The notes beneath the pieces are model-generated. The model was not told the origin of the DNA and did no database searches. It saw nothing but the letters and a program-made list of their open reading frames with translations. Made by a program: the position numbers and the translations under genes. A DNA stretch of 64,000 nt, from NCBI RefSeq assembly GCF_988243305.1, contig NZ_OZ547136.1; one strand, written 5' to 3'. Below are positions 3,327 through 63,786 of the stretch, piece by piece; within the stretch, counting starts at the first letter, position 1; the number at the start of each line of letters is the position of its first letter.

Positions 3327-3338
3327 AGGTCGCCGCCC
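3327..3338. other. cos: cosN 12-nt cohesive-end sequence (cos region about 3245-3400)
   Basis: The plus strand reads AGGTCGCCGCCC, the reverse complement of lambda GGGCGGCGACCT. The flanking sequence (..CGCGGGTTTTCGCTATTTATGAAAATTTTCCGGTTTAAGGCG.. on the minus strand) matches the lambda left end. Confidence 0.85.
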
Positions 3339-11372: not shown

Positions 11373-11791
11373 GACAACCTCCTGTATTGGACGTACACCA
11401 GTTCTGATAAATATGAGGCTGTCTCATCATTGATTCAATATAACTATTGGGTATAGTTTCTGTGATTTTGTTCTGTAGAAATGGAACACAACAACCAGTC
11501 ACCACCAGCACTTCTTTAAATACGCCAAGTCCGACGCAAGCTAACCTTCTAGTCCGCTTTGAGCGAGGAGCGGACCAAACCCGGCCAACTGACTCTTAAA
11601 GGGGCCGCAGGAATTTTTCGTCTGAACTTTCGAAGCTCCTCTCCCTGAAGACAGAAAACTTCTGTGTGCTGTGGGAATATTGAATCTTTGCATTAGATAT
11701 AAATAATTTTATCCCGCCTGAAGTTTACATTATTTTATTTATCTGTTTTTCTAAATCAGACTGCACTCCTTACTTAAATCAGGAGCCAGTC

Positions 11792-12991
11792 ATGCCATTT
11801 GTTATTTATGTGTTTACTATCAGTGCCTTTGCGCTCGGACTCGCGGAATTTGTCCCCATTGGGCTGACAGACGTTATGGCTCAGGGGTTGTGTGTGGGTG
11901 TGGAGCAGACCGGGGCAGCGGTTACAACCTATGCACTGGGGGCAACGTTCGCGGCACCCGTACTGTCTGCGCTGACAGCAAGCTGGAGCCGGAAAAATGT
12001 AATGCTTACAACTGCCGTTGTGTTTACTGCCGGTAGTCTGGCGGCCGCGTTTGCAGCCACATTACCTCAGCTCCTGTTAGCGCGGTTCATTGCTGGTCTG
12101 GGACACGGCCTGTTTCTGGCTGCGGCATCCAGTACCGCAGCTCGTCTTGCTGGACCGGGTAAAGCAGGCAGAGCGGTGGCTGTGGTATTTGGTGGCTTTA
12201 CTCTGGCGATGGCAATCGGCGTACCGCTGAGTACATGGTTGGGGGGGGTGGTCTCATGGCGTCCAGTTCTCGGCGCTATTGCCGCTTTTGGCGCGTTCGG
12301 ATTCCTTGGACTGTTGTTCGGTATGAAAGATCCCGTACGCAGCGTGCCCGGTGAACATAGTGACTCAGCAATGCAGAATATCGGCATGCTGTTTAACCGT
12401 AAGTTGCTGGCCGGCGCGCTGGTTACGGTGCTGGCGTATGCAGGCTCGTTTACGGCTTACACCTTTATCGCACCTATTCTGACGCAGGTGACAGGGGTTA
12501 CCGGAGCAAAGGTGAGTCTGTTTATGCTGGTTTACGGTATTACAGCTGCGGTAGGTAATATTCTTGGTGGGAAACTTACCGACAGCATGGGGGTTAATCG
12601 TGCCAATATACTCATCATTAGCGGCATTGTTGTTGTCGTGCTTGGTATGTGGCTGCTGTCATCCTCACCGGTGAGCATGGGCATTCTGGTTGCGCTGCTG
12701 GGTATGGTGACATTTGCCGCAGTGCCGGCACTGCAGGCCCGTCTGATTGGTGTCGCTGAGCAACATGCTCCTCATGCGCATGGTGTTGCTGCCGGCCTGA
12801 ATATTGCGGGCTTCAACTCAGGTATAGCGCTGGGATCAGTACTGGGCAGCATTACTATAAGCCACGCCGGTATCGTGTATACCGGTATCAGCGGTGCGAT
12901 TGTTTCTCTGCTCGGCCTGCTGTTGCTGCTTGCACAAATCCGTCGCAGCCACAGTCGTAAATTTCAACAGGTTAAAATCGTAGGCCAGTAA
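11792..12991 (+). CDS. MFS transporter (12-TM, sugar/drug efflux-like)
   Basis: The 399-aa ORF is uniformly hydrophobic and has MFS_1-like loop motifs (GLGHGLF, GRAVAVVFGG). Confidence 0.85.
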   Translation: MPFVIYVFTISAFALGLAEFVPIGLTDVMAQGLCVGVEQTGAAVTTYALGATFAAPVLSALTASWSRKNVMLTTAVVFTAGSLAAAFAATLPQLLLARFIAGLGHGLFLAAASSTAARLAGPGKAGRAVAVVFGGFTLAMAIGVPLSTWLGGVVSWRPVLGAIAAFGAFGFLGLLFGMKDPVRSVPGEHSDSAMQNIGMLFNRKLLAGALVTVLAYAGSFTAYTFIAPILTQVTGVTGAKVSLFMLVYGITAAVGNILGGKLTDSMGVNRANILIISGIVVVVLGMWLLSSSPVSMGILVALLGMVTFAAVPALQARLIGVAEQHAPHAHGVAAGLNIAGFNSGIALGSVLGSITISHAGIVYTGISGAIVSLLGLLLLLAQIRRSHSRKFQQVKIVGQ

Positions 12992-48466: not shown

Positions 48467-48540
48467 ATATAACTTATTTCACATAACACGTTGATTTAAT
48501 TAAATAATTTTCACCGCAAAAAGTGCCAAAAATCGCAAAA

Positions 48541-48599
48541 TGACTACACCAGTGACTACACCGTTCGGTGCACTGTATGAAACAACGTGGAACAAATAG
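48541..48599. repeat. Left-arm repeat block: TGACTACACC-AGTGACTACACC followed by ..GAAACAACGTGGAACAA
   Basis: It is homologous, in direct orientation, to the block at 63636-63705 just inside the other end. These are likely integrase arm-type sites. Confidence 0.7.
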
Positions 48600-48825
48600 A
48601 CACAAGAAATATACAGGCGGATCATCTTTCCAGGGGGAAGCGCACCAATTCATGAGGGGCGTTAATGTCGATATGGGGATCCCCACCTACCGGAATTTTT
48701 TTCCGGTTAAACGTTAATCAGGCTGGTGGGCTTTACCTGTTCGGTAGGTGTTATGATTATCGTAATACCTTTCCCCCAATGGGGTAAAAGCATCAACCGT
48801 AACGAAAGTCGTTATGGTTGCCACT

Positions 48826-48899
48826 GATACCCCAAATTTGGGTATCACGAGTAAGACCCAAAATCTGGGTGTTACTCTTACTACCCAAACTACGGGTAG
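48826..48899. repeat. Three inverted repeats at a 27-bp period (GATACCCCAAATTTGGGTATC / ACCCAAAATCTGGGT / CTACCCAAACTACGGGTAG)
   Basis: I read them directly. The centres are at about 48836, 48863 and 48890. Confidence 0.85.
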
Positions 48900-48918
48900 T
48901 TTCCGTAGTTTCATGGTC

Positions 48919-48938
48919 GAGTTGCAGATCTGCAACTC
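48919..48938. repeat. Perfect 20-bp palindrome GAGTTGCAGATCTGCAACTC
   Basis: I read it directly. The reverse complement of the first 10 nt equals the last 10 nt. Confidence 0.95.
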
Positions 48939-49231
48939 CCCCATTAACCACAGGCGAATTTCCGCCTTCGGTCATTCCTTAATCATCTGCGTAATCATAA
49001 TGATTATTCAGCAAGCGCAATTTTGCACTTTGCTTAAAGTTCAGCGAGTTACCGCGCCGACTTCCTCAAATTGAGGTTTCCGAAAATATCAGCGGGTTAG
49101 CGATTAAGCTGATCATTAATTAAACTGCGAAAATTTCGTAGTTTGTGACTGTCTTTCAGGCAGCTTGTTAACAGTCCTCAGAAGCGAGGGATGTAGCCAC
49201 CCATTTTTGGTCCGTCGGGAATATCAACCAG

Positions 49232-49513
49232 TTACCGCCGCAACCGCTCCGGCTTCTTCCAGTGGTACGTTATTTTCTCCTTCTCCCGATACATCTCCAC
49301 GCGGCGACGGTAGGCCAGCAACTCAAGAACTCTGGTTCGTATGTTGCGCATATCCACGCCATTAAGTTCTATACCATCACGGCGCATCACCTCAGCAACA
49401 ACACGCGCATAGTTTTCGGCTGTCACGCTGTCCGGCTGCGTGGCCTGTTCGTCAGCCTGCTGGCTGATTCCGGCAACGCGGCGGATTAATCCCGTTATTT
49501 CGGCTTCTGTCAT
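49232..49513 (-). CDS. Hypothetical protein (93 aa) downstream of terL
   Basis: The ORF MTEAEITGLIRRVAGISQQADEQ.. is tightly spaced after terL. I recognise no family. Confidence 0.5.
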   Translation of the reverse strand: MTEAEITGLIRRVAGISQQADEQATQPDSVTAENYARVVAEVMRRDGIELNGVDMRNIRTRVLELLAYRRRVEMYREKEKITYHWKKPERLRR

Positions 49514-49526
49514 GCTGCTGACCTCA

Positions 49527-51188
49527 TTACACCCCGCTAAATTCTTCCAGTTTCTGGCGGTGGCTGTCGCTTATATCAAAAGCAAAATCCTCATGCTCTG
49601 CCTGGAATGTACCAAACGCCATCAGCGCCGCCACGCTCGGGTCTATCTTGTTCGGTGATTTTTTCTTGTTCGGCTTGATATTGGCGTTCGCGTCACTCTG
49701 CATCACGACGTTACTCATCGACCAGGACAACACCGGATCGCCACGATGCACAATCACCCTGCGGTTAACAAAAACTTCGAACGATTTCGCCGCCGGACTG
49801 AATCTGAGGTAGGTTTGCGGGAACGGCTCCACCTCAAAACCTGCCCCCTGTAATTGCGTTCTGAGATGCGTGGCGTTCCACGTATCAAAGCCCACCAGCC
49901 TGATATTAAATTTCTCCGCGTCCTGCATGATGTCATCTCTGATCCGGTCGTAATCAATGCAGTCGCCAGGCGTTGTGCGTATCCAGCCTGCTTTAGCCCA
50001 CTGACGATAGATGGCGCGGTTTTTATTGGCGGGGTTCTGTAGCTGAAATTCCGGCAGATAGTGACGGGAAACCAGCATAATGGTTTTACCGACCGGAAAG
50101 GCATAGCACACGCTGGAAATATCGCTGGTTGATGATAAGTCCAGCCCCGCGTAACACTCCTGGCCGTGTAAATCTTCCTCCGTGAACGTTCCGGCACACT
50201 CAGCCCATGCGCCGTTACCCATCCACGGGGTAGCCCCCAGGCACCAGATATTAAATCGCTTTGTCATCATCTCCACCCACTGCGACGGAATACCCCGCGC
50301 TTTCTGGATGGTTGAGGCCAGTTTTTCACGATCCACGGAAACATCAATATTAGGGTTCGCCTTTATCCACATCGCCGGATCATCAACCTCGTTTTCGTCG
50401 TCCAGTTCGTAAATCAGTACAAAAATTGAATCGTTGACCTCTTCGCCGTCCAGGATCTGGCAGCAATAATCATAGTGCTGCTTACAGGCTGAAACGACGT
50501 TACTGCCTGATGTGGTAATAGCAAATAACAGCCCTTCGGGACGTGCGCCCATCCCCAGCTCAAGCGCGGAATAAACGCCGTTATCGGGGTGCAAGTGGTA
50601 TTCGTCCACGATGGAAAGGCTGGGGTTTGTTCCCTCGATGGTTGCCGCTTTTGCTGCCAGCGGCTTTAACAGGCTGTTGCTTTTCGGGTGTATCACCTTA
50701 TGCGCCTGAATATTCACCCGCCTGCGTAACGGTCGGGATAAAAGGCACATCTGACGCGCATCATCAAAGACGATCCGCGCCTGGTCACGGCTCACCGCTG
50801 CGGTGTAAATATCCTGCTGACCGTTCTCCATAATCAGAAACCAGTTAGCCAGAATCGCGGCGGTCGTGGATTTCGCATTTTTGCGCGGCACTTCGATAAA
50901 GGCGCTCGTGTATTTGCGCCGTCCGGTGGCCTTAACCTTAAAGCCGAGGATGCACGCAAAGGCGAACTGCTGCCACGGCTCCAGCTCAATGGGTCTGCCA
51001 CGCATCGGCCCTTTTACGTGCGGGCACACCCTGGAAAAGGCAATAAACCGCTCCACAACCTCACGATCGAACGTGTAAAGGGGGCTTTCAAGGTCCGAAA
51101 AGTACCGTTTAACGGCCTGTTTCAGCCGTTTACAGGCCGGAATTTTGCCCGTTTTTACGTCTTCTGCGTACTTATTCCAGGCGGTCAA
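49527..51188 (-). CDS. terL: Terminase large subunit
   Basis: The 553-aa ORF has an ATPase region (..EVPRKNAKSTTAAILANWF..) and a nuclease C-terminus. It overlaps terS. Confidence 0.9.
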   Translation of the reverse strand: MTAWNKYAEDVKTGKIPACKRLKQAVKRYFSDLESPLYTFDREVVERFIAFSRVCPHVKGPMRGRPIELEPWQQFAFACILGFKVKATGRRKYTSAFIEVPRKNAKSTTAAILANWFLIMENGQQDIYTAAVSRDQARIVFDDARQMCLLSRPLRRRVNIQAHKVIHPKSNSLLKPLAAKAATIEGTNPSLSIVDEYHLHPDNGVYSALELGMGARPEGLLFAITTSGSNVVSACKQHYDYCCQILDGEEVNDSIFVLIYELDDENEVDDPAMWIKANPNIDVSVDREKLASTIQKARGIPSQWVEMMTKRFNIWCLGATPWMGNGAWAECAGTFTEEDLHGQECYAGLDLSSTSDISSVCYAFPVGKTIMLVSRHYLPEFQLQNPANKNRAIYRQWAKAGWIRTTPGDCIDYDRIRDDIMQDAEKFNIRLVGFDTWNATHLRTQLQGAGFEVEPFPQTYLRFSPAAKSFEVFVNRRVIVHRGDPVLSWSMSNVVMQSDANANIKPNKKKSPNKIDPSVAALMAFGTFQAEHEDFAFDISDSHRQKLEEFSGV

Positions 51189-55868: not shown

Positions 55869-56120
55869 AAAAAAAAGTCCTGGGGTTAAGTAAGGAACTC
55901 CAGGACGCGGCAAACACTCAACCGTTTTTCATAAGGAAATCAGCAATCGCACCGATCGTTTTCCCGCCTGGTAATGAATATTGGCGAGCACATTAACAGG
56001 CGGGAAAGTGGCCCCAGCGTCCTGGCACCACGGGCGAGAATAATCATGATTCAGTTCGGGTAAAATATGCCGATCCGCTCAGTGAACAACGTGGAACAAC
56101 CACGAACAAATAATTTACAA

Positions 56121-57460: not shown

Positions 57461-57662
57461 TTCTCGCAACCTCTCACTTTTTCGCCTCACTTTTTCAAGC
57501 GTCTCACTTCGTCGCAGTTGGGATTTTCGGTTTTTCTATGTGTGTGTTTCATAAGTATTTTTTTACCCCTCACTTTTGAGGATGTATACAGGTCGAAAAG
57601 TGAGGGAGAGCGGGCTAATTTTGGCCCTCTTTCTATCCCCCTCGCTTTTGCTCCTCACTTTT
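57461..57662. repeat. ori: Replication-origin-like iteron field (CTCACTTTT x6-7, one inverted pair, AT-rich core)
   Basis: Iterons occur at 57473, 57486, 57503, 57569, 57596 (inverted), 57641 (variant) and 57654. The AT-rich stretch TTCATAAGTATTTTTTTAC lies immediately 3' of the rep gene. Confidence 0.7.
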
Positions 57663-59061
57663 ATAGCGGCGCTACATCATCCCCATCGATACGAATAACC
57701 CCATCTTTTTCCAGCTTGTACAGCCAGCGCCGGAAGTTTTTCATTTCATACCCCAGTTTTTTCATGTCATCACGTAACAGCGGGATCGTGCACTTGTCGC
57801 CGTTCTGTGTGCGTGAACGGATGCACCCCCATAGCGCGGTATGGTTTTCCGTCTTGTTCCCTGCCTCCTCGATGCGCTCCAGTTCAACAGGAGGGCGCGG
57901 ATCATCCACCACTACCAGCGACGTGATTAATTCACCGTCAGCGTCGGTAAAAAGCTCCACCACGCGTAAGTCATATGCGGCTTCTTTGAGTTCCTCCGCG
58001 TCCTTCATTTTGGTGCATGAGATAACCAGCGCTTCGCTTCCTGCGTCCTCCCTGCGTATCCGGTATTCAGCATCCAGCGAAGCACGAAATGCACTGGAAC
58101 CGCGCGCGCCTTTCGTCTCATCCTTGCCGGAATGGTGAACCACCAGCACCGTGGCCCCTGTGCGTCGTTTCAGTTCGTCACAACCACGGATAAACGCCCC
58201 CATATCACGGGAATCATTTTCATCATTCCCACCAAAGCAACGCGCCAGCGTATCCAGAATAATCATGCGTACAGGTTTACCCGTTTCCCGCTCCACCTGA
58301 CGGGCAGCGATAACCATTTCATCAACATCAAGCGGGGCAGCCGGAAAGATGGGGCGGTTTACCAGATACAGATTTTTCACCTGCTCATCGTGCACAACCT
58401 CCCAGGCTTTTACACGACGCGGAACACCTATACCGCCTTCACCAACCACATAGAGAACCGCACCATGTGCAACCCTGCGGCCTCCCCACTGGCGACCAGT
58501 GGCAACATGGCACGCCCACGATCCGGCAAGGAATGATTTATAGGACCCGCTAGCCCCGTATATGCTGCATAGCGATACCGCCGGAATAATCCCCTTAACC
58601 ACGTAATCCAGTTGCGTGTCGTATCCGGTAGATCCAACGCTCATCGGTAGCGTGGTTTTTCGCTGGTGGTTTTTTTCTTCCACCGGCTCTTTCCCGCGCA
58701 CCCGTTCCAGGTATTCGCGCCAGTTCTCCCGCATATGGCTGTGCATCCCTTCGGGGTAATAATTCGCATCAGTTACACCCGCCGCCGCCAGCTTGTGCGC
58801 AATGGCATTAATATTTGATGGCCTGATGTGGCCTGCCTTGTACAGCCGGACACAATAGCGCCCCTCGTCGATGATTCTCAGGTCTGCCAGTTCATCCAGT
58901 TGATCATCAGCCAGCACAACGGGAGGCACATTATCGCCAGCCAGTCGCCCGTCCTGTTCCTGCCACTGTTTCGCATGTGCCCAGGCATCACTACCCGCAA
59001 AAATAATGACTTCGGTCATCTTGTCGTAAGGCTGTTTTTTTAAGTTCGGTGCGCTTTTCAT
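57661..59061 (-). CDS. RepA/DnaB-like AAA_25 ATPase (satellite replication initiator-helicase)
   Basis: The 466-aa ORF has Walker A GASGSYKS, Walker B RMIILDTLAR and ..VLVVHHSGKDETKGARGSSAF.. Confidence 0.8.
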   Translation of the reverse strand: MKSAPNLKKQPYDKMTEVIIFAGSDAWAHAKQWQEQDGRLAGDNVPPVVLADDQLDELADLRIIDEGRYCVRLYKAGHIRPSNINAIAHKLAAAGVTDANYYPEGMHSHMRENWREYLERVRGKEPVEEKNHQRKTTLPMSVGSTGYDTQLDYVVKGIIPAVSLCSIYGASGSYKSFLAGSWACHVATGRQWGGRRVAHGAVLYVVGEGGIGVPRRVKAWEVVHDEQVKNLYLVNRPIFPAAPLDVDEMVIAARQVERETGKPVRMIILDTLARCFGGNDENDSRDMGAFIRGCDELKRRTGATVLVVHHSGKDETKGARGSSAFRASLDAEYRIRREDAGSEALVISCTKMKDAEELKEAAYDLRVVELFTDADGELITSLVVVDDPRPPVELERIEEAGNKTENHTALWGCIRSRTQNGDKCTIPLLRDDMKKLGYEMKNFRRWLYKLEKDGVIRIDGDDVAPL

Positions 59062-62199: not shown

Positions 62200-62381
62200 T
62201 CGCTCTTTAAAGAGTGATTCGCTAGTGTATAAAAAACCAGTAACGCATTAAAAATCAGCTACTTATAAATCCGTACGCTTTTTCGCCTCTTGTTCGTAGT
62301 TGTTCCACATTGTTGCTCATTGTTGCACGTTGTATCTGTTCGCATATACAGTATGCGCATACTGAAAAAACACGAAAAAAA

Positions 62382-63599
62382 TTATTTTCTTCTGGCTACT
62401 GGTAGCGTGGTTACGTTTTCATGTGTTCCCGCCAGTATCCCTAACCGCTCCGTCCACATATCCAGCGCATTGCGTTTAGCATCCAGATAACGGGAATGAT
62501 TATAAACTCGCTGCATTCCTGGCATCTGGTGGCCTGTAAGCTGCTCCACGACATGCGGATCAACGCCTAAATCGTTCAGCATGGTTGTAAAGGTGCGCCG
62601 GATGTCATGCAGTGACCAGTGAGGATGATTAAGCCTCCTGTGCGCTAATCTTCCATACTGCGATACGCTGGCCTCCTGTTTCACTTCCCCCAGCAATAAG
62701 CCCGTGTGCCTGTTCTGCTCCACCAGCTGCGTGACGAACGGCAGGATCGCTTCCGGTATGGGCCGGAATATTGCGACCTTCGTTTTGCTGTGCTCCTTCG
62801 GAACGGTCCATAGCATTTCCGTAAAATCCCACTCCCCGATCTCCGATAACCTCAGTTCTACCGTTCTGGCTCCGAAGACAATCAGGAGGCGGATTAACGC
62901 GACGTAGTAAGGGGAGAATATTTTTTTGTCCAGTGCCTGCAATAATTCGCCAAGTTCTTTGTTACTTAAGACACGTTCGCTTATATCCGGTTTTTTCCCA
63001 ACGTCCGCCACGTTCAGATCGTCCAGAACGTTGCTGATTGCATAGCGCCGCCTACGGCAGAACTTAAGCGCCTGTTTGCACGCCTGTAGCACGAATCCGG
63101 CAGTAACAGGCGTTCGCTTTGCCACCTGGTCAAAACAGGCCAGCCAGTGCCGTAGCTCGCATTTATCCAGCGGCATAGCACCAATCTGCTGTATTACGTG
63201 ATTATTAAGTCGCCTTTTCAGGGCGATATAATCCACGCGGTTTTCCTTTACGTAATACTCAAGCCAGTAGGTGAGCGCATCGCCAACCGTTACGGGCTTT
63301 AACGCTTCCTGTACGGTGTAATTCATCTCATGACGTGGATTTTTCCCCTCAGCCAGCCATGTGCGACACTGTGCGGCTTTTTCCCTGGCTGCTTTCAGGC
63401 TCAGATCAGGATAACTTCCCAGCTTAATGCGTTCGGGTCGTGTCTCCCTTCCCGTTCCGGCCCTGTATGTGAAATACCAGGTCAATTTCCCTGATGTTAA
63501 ATATTTCACGCTCAGGTTTCCGCCATCACTATAAAACGTGTTTTTCTCCGCTGGCTTACCATGAAGTTTCCTTAGCAAGGTATCGCTCAGTTTGTTCAT
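62382..63599 (-). CDS. int: P4-type tyrosine integrase
   Basis: The ATG start gives MNKLSDTLLRKLHGKPAEKNTFYSDGGNLSVKY.. (DUF4102-type arm-binding N-terminus). The catalytic region reads ..HDIRRTFTTML..LTGHQMPGMQRVYNH. The track ORF starts 4 codons earlier at a GTG. Confidence 0.9.
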   Translation of the reverse strand: MNKLSDTLLRKLHGKPAEKNTFYSDGGNLSVKYLTSGKLTWYFTYRAGTGRETRPERIKLGSYPDLSLKAAREKAAQCRTWLAEGKNPRHEMNYTVQEALKPVTVGDALTYWLEYYVKENRVDYIALKRRLNNHVIQQIGAMPLDKCELRHWLACFDQVAKRTPVTAGFVLQACKQALKFCRRRRYAISNVLDDLNVADVGKKPDISERVLSNKELGELLQALDKKIFSPYYVALIRLLIVFGARTVELRLSEIGEWDFTEMLWTVPKEHSKTKVAIFRPIPEAILPFVTQLVEQNRHTGLLLGEVKQEASVSQYGRLAHRRLNHPHWSLHDIRRTFTTMLNDLGVDPHVVEQLTGHQMPGMQRVYNHSRYLDAKRNALDMWTERLGILAGTHENVTTLPVARRK

Positions 63600-63635
63600 T
63601 GCTCTGCTCACGTTTTACCCCCTCTTTACGAAAAA

Positions 63636-63705
63636 GTGACTACACCAGTGACTACACCGATCGTTGCACAAAGGGCTACAACGTGAAACAAGCTGGAACA
63701 AGGAA
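63636..63705. repeat. Right-arm repeat block: GTGACTACACC-AGTGACTACACC followed by ..ACAACGTGAAACAAGCTGGAACAA
   Basis: This is the partner of the block at 48541-48599. It lies 25-95 bp upstream of the int start. Confidence 0.7.
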
Positions 63706-63786
63706 AATCACAAATCTGTTGATAATCAAAAACATAATGCACAGCCTGAAACATTATGAAACAGCAAAAAACACTAAATGATAAAA

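Follow-up and report, generated by a model that had tools for sequence, protein, structure and literature searches.

EcCIEDL933 is the type of those phage-inducible chromosomal islands that form capsids (cf-PICIs), and the island considered here has a matching gene set (bioRxiv 10.1101/2022.09.08.507074). PICIs and cf-PICIs have been dissected gene by gene, and their non-coding parts have hardly been mapped. Immunity RNAs of the P4 CI, P1 C4 and IsrK type can be embedded in genes of the Bro/KilA-N network (bioRxiv 10.1101/2022.07.18.500453). A literature search for the repeat sequences reported below found none, and the papers on cf-PICIs, Rpp and helper-embedded satellites do not describe the element. 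Here, we describe a conserved non-coding cassette that follows the late operon of such an island. Our tentative reading, to which we give a probability of roughly one in three, is that it is a structured 3′-untranslated hairpin array of the late operon, presumed to be transcribed and to act at the RNA level.

The window, that is, the whole stretch of 64,000 nucleotides that was analysed, contains an island at about 48.47 to 63.76 kb, inserted in tqsA, with all genes on the minus strand. The host element is a phage-inducible chromosomal island, an EcCIEDL933-like cf-PICI, with the following landmarks:

62382-63611, minus strand: integrase gene (int)
57661-59061, minus strand: AAA_25 (RepA-type) helicase gene, 466 aa
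51172-51528, minus strand: TerS, P27 family
49527-51188, minus strand: TerL
49232-49513, minus strand: last gene of the late operon, 93 aa, phrog_1561 (PHROG 1561)

The helicase gene is followed by those for capsid, protease, portal, connectors and HNH, and then by those for TerS, TerL and the 93-aa protein. Over its 767 bp, the left end matches E. coli PCN033 with 100% identity, and the 136 bases originally flagged are 100% identical in an O157:H7 island of the EcCIEDL933 type, which is amenable to experiment, at the same tqsA site. Between window and PCN033 the replication module is swapped, a 466-aa RepA-type helicase (57661-59061) standing against a 584-aa primase (L001:24950-26704; L numbers designate loci) beside the identical left ends. 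Elsewhere in the window, an exact lambda cohesive-end sequence (GGGCGGCGACCT, 3327-3338, minus strand) marks a lambdoid prophage or remnant. In E. coli, 1,566 genomes contain the 93-aa gene, at 2,011 places in all. Its protein family appears narrow, since a profile search against one genome per species returned a single Shigella locus; a deep profile search returned only 43 cluster representatives, and a PDB profile search found no relative. The AF2 model of the protein is all-helical with a pLDDT of 62, too poor for a fold search. A phage genome collection queried with the cassette DNA and with the 93-aa protein gave no match to either.

The cassette lies in the left end, beyond the 93-aa gene, and consists of the following elements:

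48821-48943: conserved cassette (module), about 123 bases, non-coding, three phased repeats plus palindrome
48826-48846, read directly: inverted repeat IR1, GATACCCCAAATTTGGGTATC, GATACCC-N7-GGGTATC
48856-48870, read directly: inner part of IR2, ACCCAAAATCTGGGT, ACCCA/TGGGT
48849-48877: composite IR2, with outer arms GAGTAA/TTACTC at 48849-48854 and 48872-48877
48881-48899, read directly: IR3, CTACCCAAACTACGGGTAG, CTACCC/GGGTAG
48881-48911: IR3 region, in which an alternative pairing, AAACTACGG/CCGTAGTTT at 48887-48911, overlaps IR3
48919-48938, read directly: perfect 20-nt palindrome, GAGTTGCAGATCTGCAACTC

The centres of the three inverted repeats, at 48836, 48863 and 48890, are exactly 27 bp apart, as the original prediction stated, and the other elements that it listed are likewise present, namely the perfect palindrome at 48919-48938, a hairpin near 48690 (ACCGGAATTTTTTTCCGGT, 48690-48708) and the alternative pairings AGTAAGA/TCTTACT and CTACGG/CCGTAG. 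The IR3 region also includes a 9-nt direct duplication (GTAGTTTCC/GTAGTTTCA). By hand alignment the 27-nt units are about 60-67% alike, and Tandem Repeats Finder calls no array over them. As a five-pair stem, IR2 is a property of the window only, its outermost pair being C.T in 22 of the 23 distinct variants. The arrangement is far from chance expectation. Specifically, ACCC-N-AA-N4-GGGT occurs in the 64-kb window only at 48829, 48856 and 48883; the pattern ACCCNAANNNNGGGT has four matches in the 64 kb but only these three sites, IR1 being counted on each strand, with 0.08 expected from shuffles and none of 100 shuffles reaching four; and the 20-mer palindrome is unique in the window even allowing three mismatches (0.01 expected). 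Predicted folding of 48815-48950 gives z-scores of −8.3 for the plus-strand RNA, −7.6 for the minus-strand RNA and −7.9 for the DNA. The window island holds no second copy of the cassette, complementary targets elsewhere in the window are limited to chance-level 11- to 13-mers, and sigma-70 promoter scans find none inside the cassette. Rfam, searched at a gathering-like threshold and at E = 10, gives no match, with only chance-level scores far below gathering.

BLAST matches to the left end have exact breaks at 48821 and 48943; the cassette matches without its flanks, which cannot be aligned between island types. Searched on its own, it turns up in 705 (~13%) of 5,426 complete E. coli genomes, at 802 places in total, with a median of one and up to six copies per genome. 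It is carried by cf-PICIs with HNH, TerS and TerL and by a second island type with a lambda-type capsid, a decoration protein and an Rpp/TerS-like gene, and it coexists with either a P4-type primase or a RepA-type helicase. The integration sites of these islands include tqsA, hpt, phoQ and mug, positions beside clpS and beside thiM, and the inside of lambdoid late genes. Across some 50 loci examined, the cassette has one orientation and always follows the last stop codon of the late operon, commonly 44 nt from the stop of the 93-aa gene; in an island that has no such gene it lies directly 3′ of the rpp/terS-like gene. It thus occupies the position of a 3′ untranslated region, with the last stop codon on one side and, on the same strand, a terminator-like hairpin on the other (strong in L002/L004, weaker in the window). 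A REP/BIME-like repeat was rejected, as every examined copy is in a PICI behind the late operon and the median is one copy per genome, and a MITE-like repeat was rejected, as neither terminal inverted repeats nor a target duplication is seen at the boundary with cassette-less islands.

Two arrangements stand out among these copies. At several loci the cassette island sits inside a late lambdoid gene, that for major capsid, terminase A or portal (L003:6153-8542, L061, L030, L010); these islands match the 'helper-embedded satellites' of Tommasini et al. Furthermore, hpt-integrated cf-PICIs have two cassette copies 434 bp apart (L047:943-1060 and 1378-1501; also L017 and L089), and the segment between the paired copies is origin-like, with three copies of TGCGGGTTA, an AT-rich stretch and three copies of TAACCCGCA at 21-nt spacing.

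About 40% of the islands with the 93-aa gene carry the cassette and about 60% do not, as derived from 2,011 places for the gene against 802 for the cassette. The original prediction had held that it would fail if the region were absent from otherwise identical islands and its deletion had no phenotype. Such an absence is seen in L008, a cf-PICI that is likewise inserted in tqsA and shares the TerS and portal protein accessions, but in which a different sequence stands in the place of the cassette. L006 and L007 likewise carry a different sequence in this position, and L016 is a hybrid of the window-type and the alternative cassette sequence. Since L008, L006 and L007 have another sequence there, the cassette is dispensable rather than essential. 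Islands with and without it share AlpA (WP_000953272), TerS and portal accessions. Set against cassette-less islands (window 48814-48822 and 48970-49011, compared with L006, L008 and L016), the cassette together with a neighbouring hairpin, H, looks like a 150-nt insertion, bordered by ATGGTTGCC in front and by a palindromic stretch behind. A short hydrophobic peptide (MVASMVCVVIMTVQP... in L006) could be encoded by this stretch, but its start codon is not conserved (ATG, GTG or none), for which reason we do not treat it as a gene.

It had also been proposed that the array replaces genes in the cargo slot. This is contradicted by L003, in which an Abi (abortive-infection) gene lies between cassette and att and the cassette still adjoins the operon end. 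The cargo of L003 places the cassette at the boundary between core island and accessory slot. It is thus an element that borders the cargo slot, which in the window island is simply empty.

The cassette is surrounded by further hairpins and repeated units:

48783-48820, minus strand: hairpin AACCAUAACGA/UCGUUACGGUU followed by AUGCUUUUACC, candidate intrinsic terminator 3′ of the cassette, judged from the minus-strand fold
48953-48967: hairpin H, present in the window as the weakened copy GGCGAATTTCCGCC
48987-49011: palindrome CTGCGTAATCAT-A-ATGATTATTCAG
49014-49054, 49062-49102 and 49197-49237: three copies of a unit of about 40 nt (small hairpin plus AATATCA-N4-GTTA)

The hairpin at 48783-48820 has one stem mismatch and a UUUU tail and is not flagged by a strict terminator scan. 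In islands of the L002/L004 type, which are the commonest island types (most copies of the cassette being 90-95% identical), hairpin H lies on the opposite side of the cassette, 3′ on the operon strand, where it scores as a strong minus-strand terminator, ACCGAGGGCGGAATTCCGCCTTCGGT and then a T-rich tail, with 11 pairs, eight of them G-C. The 226 nt between stop codon and terminator in L004 are predicted to form seven successive hairpins (−97 kcal/mol, z = −9.9). The flanks of the window cassette are also hairpin-rich, with folding z-scores of −4.1 and −2.5, and a control from the upstream coding region folds with z = +0.2. The cassette was rejected as an intrinsic terminator in its own right: its four hairpins are without a U-tract, none is flagged on the minus strand, and the plus-strand scan gives a single chance-level match.

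The homologue of 48987-49011 in cassette-less islands is CTGCGTGGTCAT-T-ATGACCGTTCAG, with two double changes from A-T to G-C, compared by eye. The third ~40-nt unit (49197-49237) contains the stop codon of the 93-aa gene, and the units look as if the 3′ end of that gene had been duplicated repeatedly; their number is one to three among islands and at least four in the distant relative L219. The left-end block that is conserved also contains a Chi site (GCTGGTGG, 48722-48729), which falls in a perfect 18-nt inverted copy (48717-48734) of a terL stretch (49887-49904). In other island types, exact or 7-of-8 Chi sites adjoin the cassette or the repeated units on the sense strand of the late operon (L012:11768-11775, L219:3290-3300 and others).

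The cassette diverges slowly. In the same 16 islands, its Jukes-Cantor (JC) divergence from the window is 0.02-0.24, and the neighbouring gene has a dS of 0.08-0.99 and a dN of 0.02-0.32; the cassette therefore diverges 4 to 17 times more slowly than the synonymous sites of its neighbour and usually more slowly than dN. Across these islands, the more the linked gene has diverged, the more the cassette has too, its divergence amounting to about one-sixth of dS. Within the window's island type it is better conserved than both immediate flanks in L019, L064 and L077 (in L019, identities of 0.87 for the left flank, 0.98 for the cassette and 0.83 for the right flank), and in other island types diversity collapses only over hairpin H and the cassette. 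A cassette beside a divergent, frameshifted copy of the 93-aa gene is still 91% identical. Slow divergence, conservation beyond the flanks and the identity beside the frameshifted gene together indicate either local constraint on the cassette or its local homogenisation. The repeats, which the original prediction proposed to weigh against any ORF, are the conserved feature.

The pattern within the cassette is less readily assigned to base pairing. Among 23 variants of at least 75% identity, a set of low power for this purpose, none of the 39 scored pairs changed on both sides, which does not exceed shuffles; outside the scored pairs, hand comparison shows one two-sided change, from G-C to A-T, at the innermost pair of the palindrome. 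Most stem substitutions break pairing, and those that keep a wobble pair favour neither strand (5 versus 6 events, own tally). The six outer pairs of IR1 (GATACC/GGTATC) are near invariant over the 23 variants, with two departing in one and three sequences, and its interior varies freely. The inner stem of IR2 is paired in 83% of cells across variants and is destroyed in the most divergent lineage, the L003 type with 75% identity, which has also lost the CTACCC/GGGTAG of IR3; these islands keep the left half-sites (C)CCCAAA even though their palindromic partners are lost. Variants with a 9-nt deletion in the IR3 region retain AAACTAC-NN-GTAGTTT. Loops and spacers are as conserved as stems, conserved blocks of 10-22 nt alternate with variable patches, and no variant has an indel across the three 27-bp units. 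A Dam/SeqA role for the palindrome was rejected because its central GATC varies.

What is observed in favour of a 3′-untranslated array is its position and orientation, the downstream terminator-like hairpin, extreme predicted folding and strong local conservation. In such an array, the minus-strand transcript of the late (capsid and packaging) operon would run past the last stop codon into the cassette, and the RNA would fold as a row of hairpins (palindrome, IR3, IR2, IR1) ending at an intrinsic terminator. The row would then most likely serve as barrier and stabiliser at the transcript end, shielding the long late mRNA from 3′ exonucleases, and would separate late transcription from the cargo slot, from attP and, in the excised circle, from int; processing into a stable 3′-UTR-derived RNA is also possible. 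The fixed place and orientation at about 50 loci, even where the 93-aa gene is missing, argue for this reading, as does the independence of the cassette from packaging type, replicase and att site. Against it stand the lack of covariation and of strand preference, the destruction of IR2 in the L003-type lineage, the lack of U-tracts of its own, and the absence of the cassette from about 60% of the islands with the 93-aa gene and from a near-identical island at the same site.

The equal conservation of loops, spacers and stems fits sequence-specific recognition better than pure structure, and an array of binding sites in duplex DNA is the nearest competitor, although a doubtful one. Dimeric proteins of the host, the helper phage or the island would bind the phased half-sites and palindromes and form a nucleoprotein complex at the boundary of late operon and att/cargo region. 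The conservation of primary sequence in 10-22-nt blocks that take in 'loops' and spacers, the three 27-bp units free of indels, the missing covariation and the half-sites that outlast their palindromic partners in L003-type islands would all be explained. The spacing itself is awkward for such a complex: 27 bp correspond to 2.5 helical turns, placing adjacent sites on opposite faces of the helix. Moreover, a separate reader would be required for each of the palindrome sequences, which number at least four and are unrelated, and no partner encoded by the island tracks the cassette, as AlpA, TerS and portal are the same with or without it, and the 93-aa gene occurs without the cassette and the cassette without the gene.

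The readers named in the original prediction fare no better. A role for TerS conflicts with the occurrence of the cassette in islands with unrelated packaging systems, and binding by Xis/AlpA or Int is disfavoured because the motifs on both att arms and in control regions are other sequences, TGACTACACC and AACAACGTGGAACAA. A 76-nt block, 76% identical between its two copies, lies at both island ends (48537-48612 and 63633-63708) and holds doubled TGACTACACC plus AACAACGTGGAACAA; the latter recurs upstream of the late operon and, in inverted orientation, in the stretch that separates int from alpA (56085-56119 and 62290-62314). These motifs are probably the integrase arm sites and the sites of AlpA (excisionase/activator).

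The palindrome provides a further point for a DNA-binding array, as it recurs without flanking homology in phage genes, in the manner of a shared recognition site. The identical 20 nt are found inside KilA-N domain genes, where they encode the peptide ELQICNS, in the nin region of lambdoid phages, among them Stx2a, SfII and their relatives:

L129:552-571: palindrome in a KilA-N gene
L141:5503-5522: palindrome in a KilA-N gene
L217 (Stx2a_1447, 11595-12392): palindrome in a KilA-N gene

In the L004-type variant up to 24 nt are identical to the KilA-N site. On either side of the palindrome, KilA-N genes and cassette have no similarity. An origin as a KilA-N pseudogene was rejected, given that nothing beyond the palindrome is alike, z stays below about 2.6 in shuffles and there is no Pfam match. 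The shared sequence could be a common recognition site, a recombination footprint or a means of RNA-level cross-talk.

Somewhat less probable again is that the cassette is a functionless relic or recombination scar, possibly in part a phage-gene fragment, whose copies stay uniform because co-resident PICIs exchange or convert them. Its absence or replacement in near-identical islands would then be expected, as would its mosaic surroundings, with hairpin H on opposite sides according to island type, the hybrid cassette of L016, the duplicated copies that bracket an iteron cassette, the up to six copies per genome, the Chi sites beside it and the palindrome in common with KilA-N genes. Against a relic, the parallel rise of cassette and gene divergence across the 16 islands, the former at about one-sixth of dS, points to co-inheritance under constraint rather than repeated replacement; within one island type the cassette is conserved above both flanks, and it retains 91% identity beside a frameshifted, divergent gene copy.

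A cis site for packaging (an accessory to cos or pac) or for replication (an origin or single-strand priming signal) is very unlikely. The cassette does lie at the end of the packaging operon, the islands encode SSB, and multi-hairpin clusters resemble G4-type priming signals. In addition, transfer of EcCIEDL933 is reported to drop severely when 'hypothetical gene 1792' in its packaging module is mutated (bioRxiv 10.1101/2022.09.08.507074), and this may be the 93-aa gene beside the cassette. However, the cassette is common to HNH/TerS/TerL and lambda-cos/Rpp islands, occurs with two unrelated replicases and is absent from a cf-PICI with identical TerS. A lambda-type cosN was rejected, since the exact cosN of the lambda-cos/Rpp islands lies upstream of rpp, 1.4 kb from the cassette (L002:10489-10500), and the island part of the window has none. 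The cassette was likewise rejected as replication origin because it is found in both primase and helicase islands and because iterons sit by the helicase gene. Specifically, 57483-57662, just 3′ of the AAA_25/RepA-type helicase gene, holds four to five iterons of the sequence CCTCACTT(TT), one in inverted orientation, and is probably the island origin.

Cross-talk between satellite and helper phage through the palindrome, in which the same phage or host factor would read both copies or the RNA would pair or kiss with a phage transcript, strikes us as slightly more improbable still. If it took place, a non-coding 3′ module could allow the island to sense a function of the helper or to titrate it.

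The left end was predicted to hold no credible gene, and this agrees with the lack of Pfam and PHROG matches and with start and stop codons that are not conserved. The one coding candidate, a small plus-strand ORF with a 9-residue repeat, does exist and has the T-x-N-L-G repeat (TDTPNLGIT / SKTQNLGVT / LTTQTTGSF, then ELQICNS), but it is not convincingly a gene. Its frame, +0, meets no stop codon within the cassette in any variant, the 9-nt indel preserves it, pN/pS is 0.4-0.5 and lowest or near-lowest among the six frames, and all four between-lineage changes in or just after the palindrome fall at third codon positions. Nevertheless, frame −1 has a similarly low pN/pS, and the variable sites per codon position (15, 5 and 14) are not a coding pattern. 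The start codon shifts or is missing, with no consistent ribosome-binding site; the ORF may be as short as 49 codons or exceed 100, extending antisense into the 93-aa gene; one variant is frameshifted; and 5.8 billion proteins contain only 20 sporadic E. coli gene calls and no distant ones. With start, stop and length variable, no third-position excess, no Pfam or PHROG match and no homologues beyond close relatives, a protein-coding role is the least probable reading of all, and we reject it.

The cassette is among the most conserved stretches at the late end of the island. Natural variants without the cassette, or with a different one, make roles in the fate of late mRNA, in insulation of the cargo slot and in cargo exchange directly testable. 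If the cassette merely stabilises or terminates a transcript, this would be ordinary biology, yet the cassette would nonetheless help annotation by marking where the core island meets its accessory or defence slot.

Among known systems, type III toxin-antitoxin RNA repeats were rejected, there being no gene downstream on either strand and the repeats being only about 60-67% alike; Esr41 was rejected because it is encoded in a different O-island (OI-43), and the paper on the Pas sRNA mentions neither PICIs nor satellites. The P4 CI, P1 C4 and IsrK immunity RNAs resemble the cassette as small structured non-coding elements of P4/PICI-like satellites, and its palindrome, too, occurs within KilA-N genes; the cassette differs in lying at the late end rather than in the early immunity region, in having no Rfam match and in lacking a complementary target in the window. 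With the R sites of lambda cosB, iterons, and the arm-type and Xis sites of attP it has in common phased imperfect repeats of fixed spacing at a non-coding end of a mobile element. Unlike these, it is not next to cosN, tracks no type of terminase, replicase or integrase and is not found on the other att arm. Intrinsic (Rho-independent) terminators are similar in their G+C-containing hairpins at an operon end, a description that hairpin H fits in L002/L004, whereas the four hairpins of the cassette are without a U-tract on the operon strand.

The remaining comparison is with REP/BIME clusters, 3′ 'retroregulator' hairpins and lambda sib. REP and sib have no sequence relation to the cassette, and REP is dispersed on the chromosome, whereas the cassette occurs in PICIs only. 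Like sib, the cassette lies beside an attachment site; integration nevertheless leaves it joined to its operon, unlike sib, so that its geometry does not suggest state-dependent retroregulation. With all three of these systems it shares an organisation as a cluster of imperfect palindromes between stop codon and terminator at the end of an operon, in surroundings that are a mosaic of small hairpin modules.
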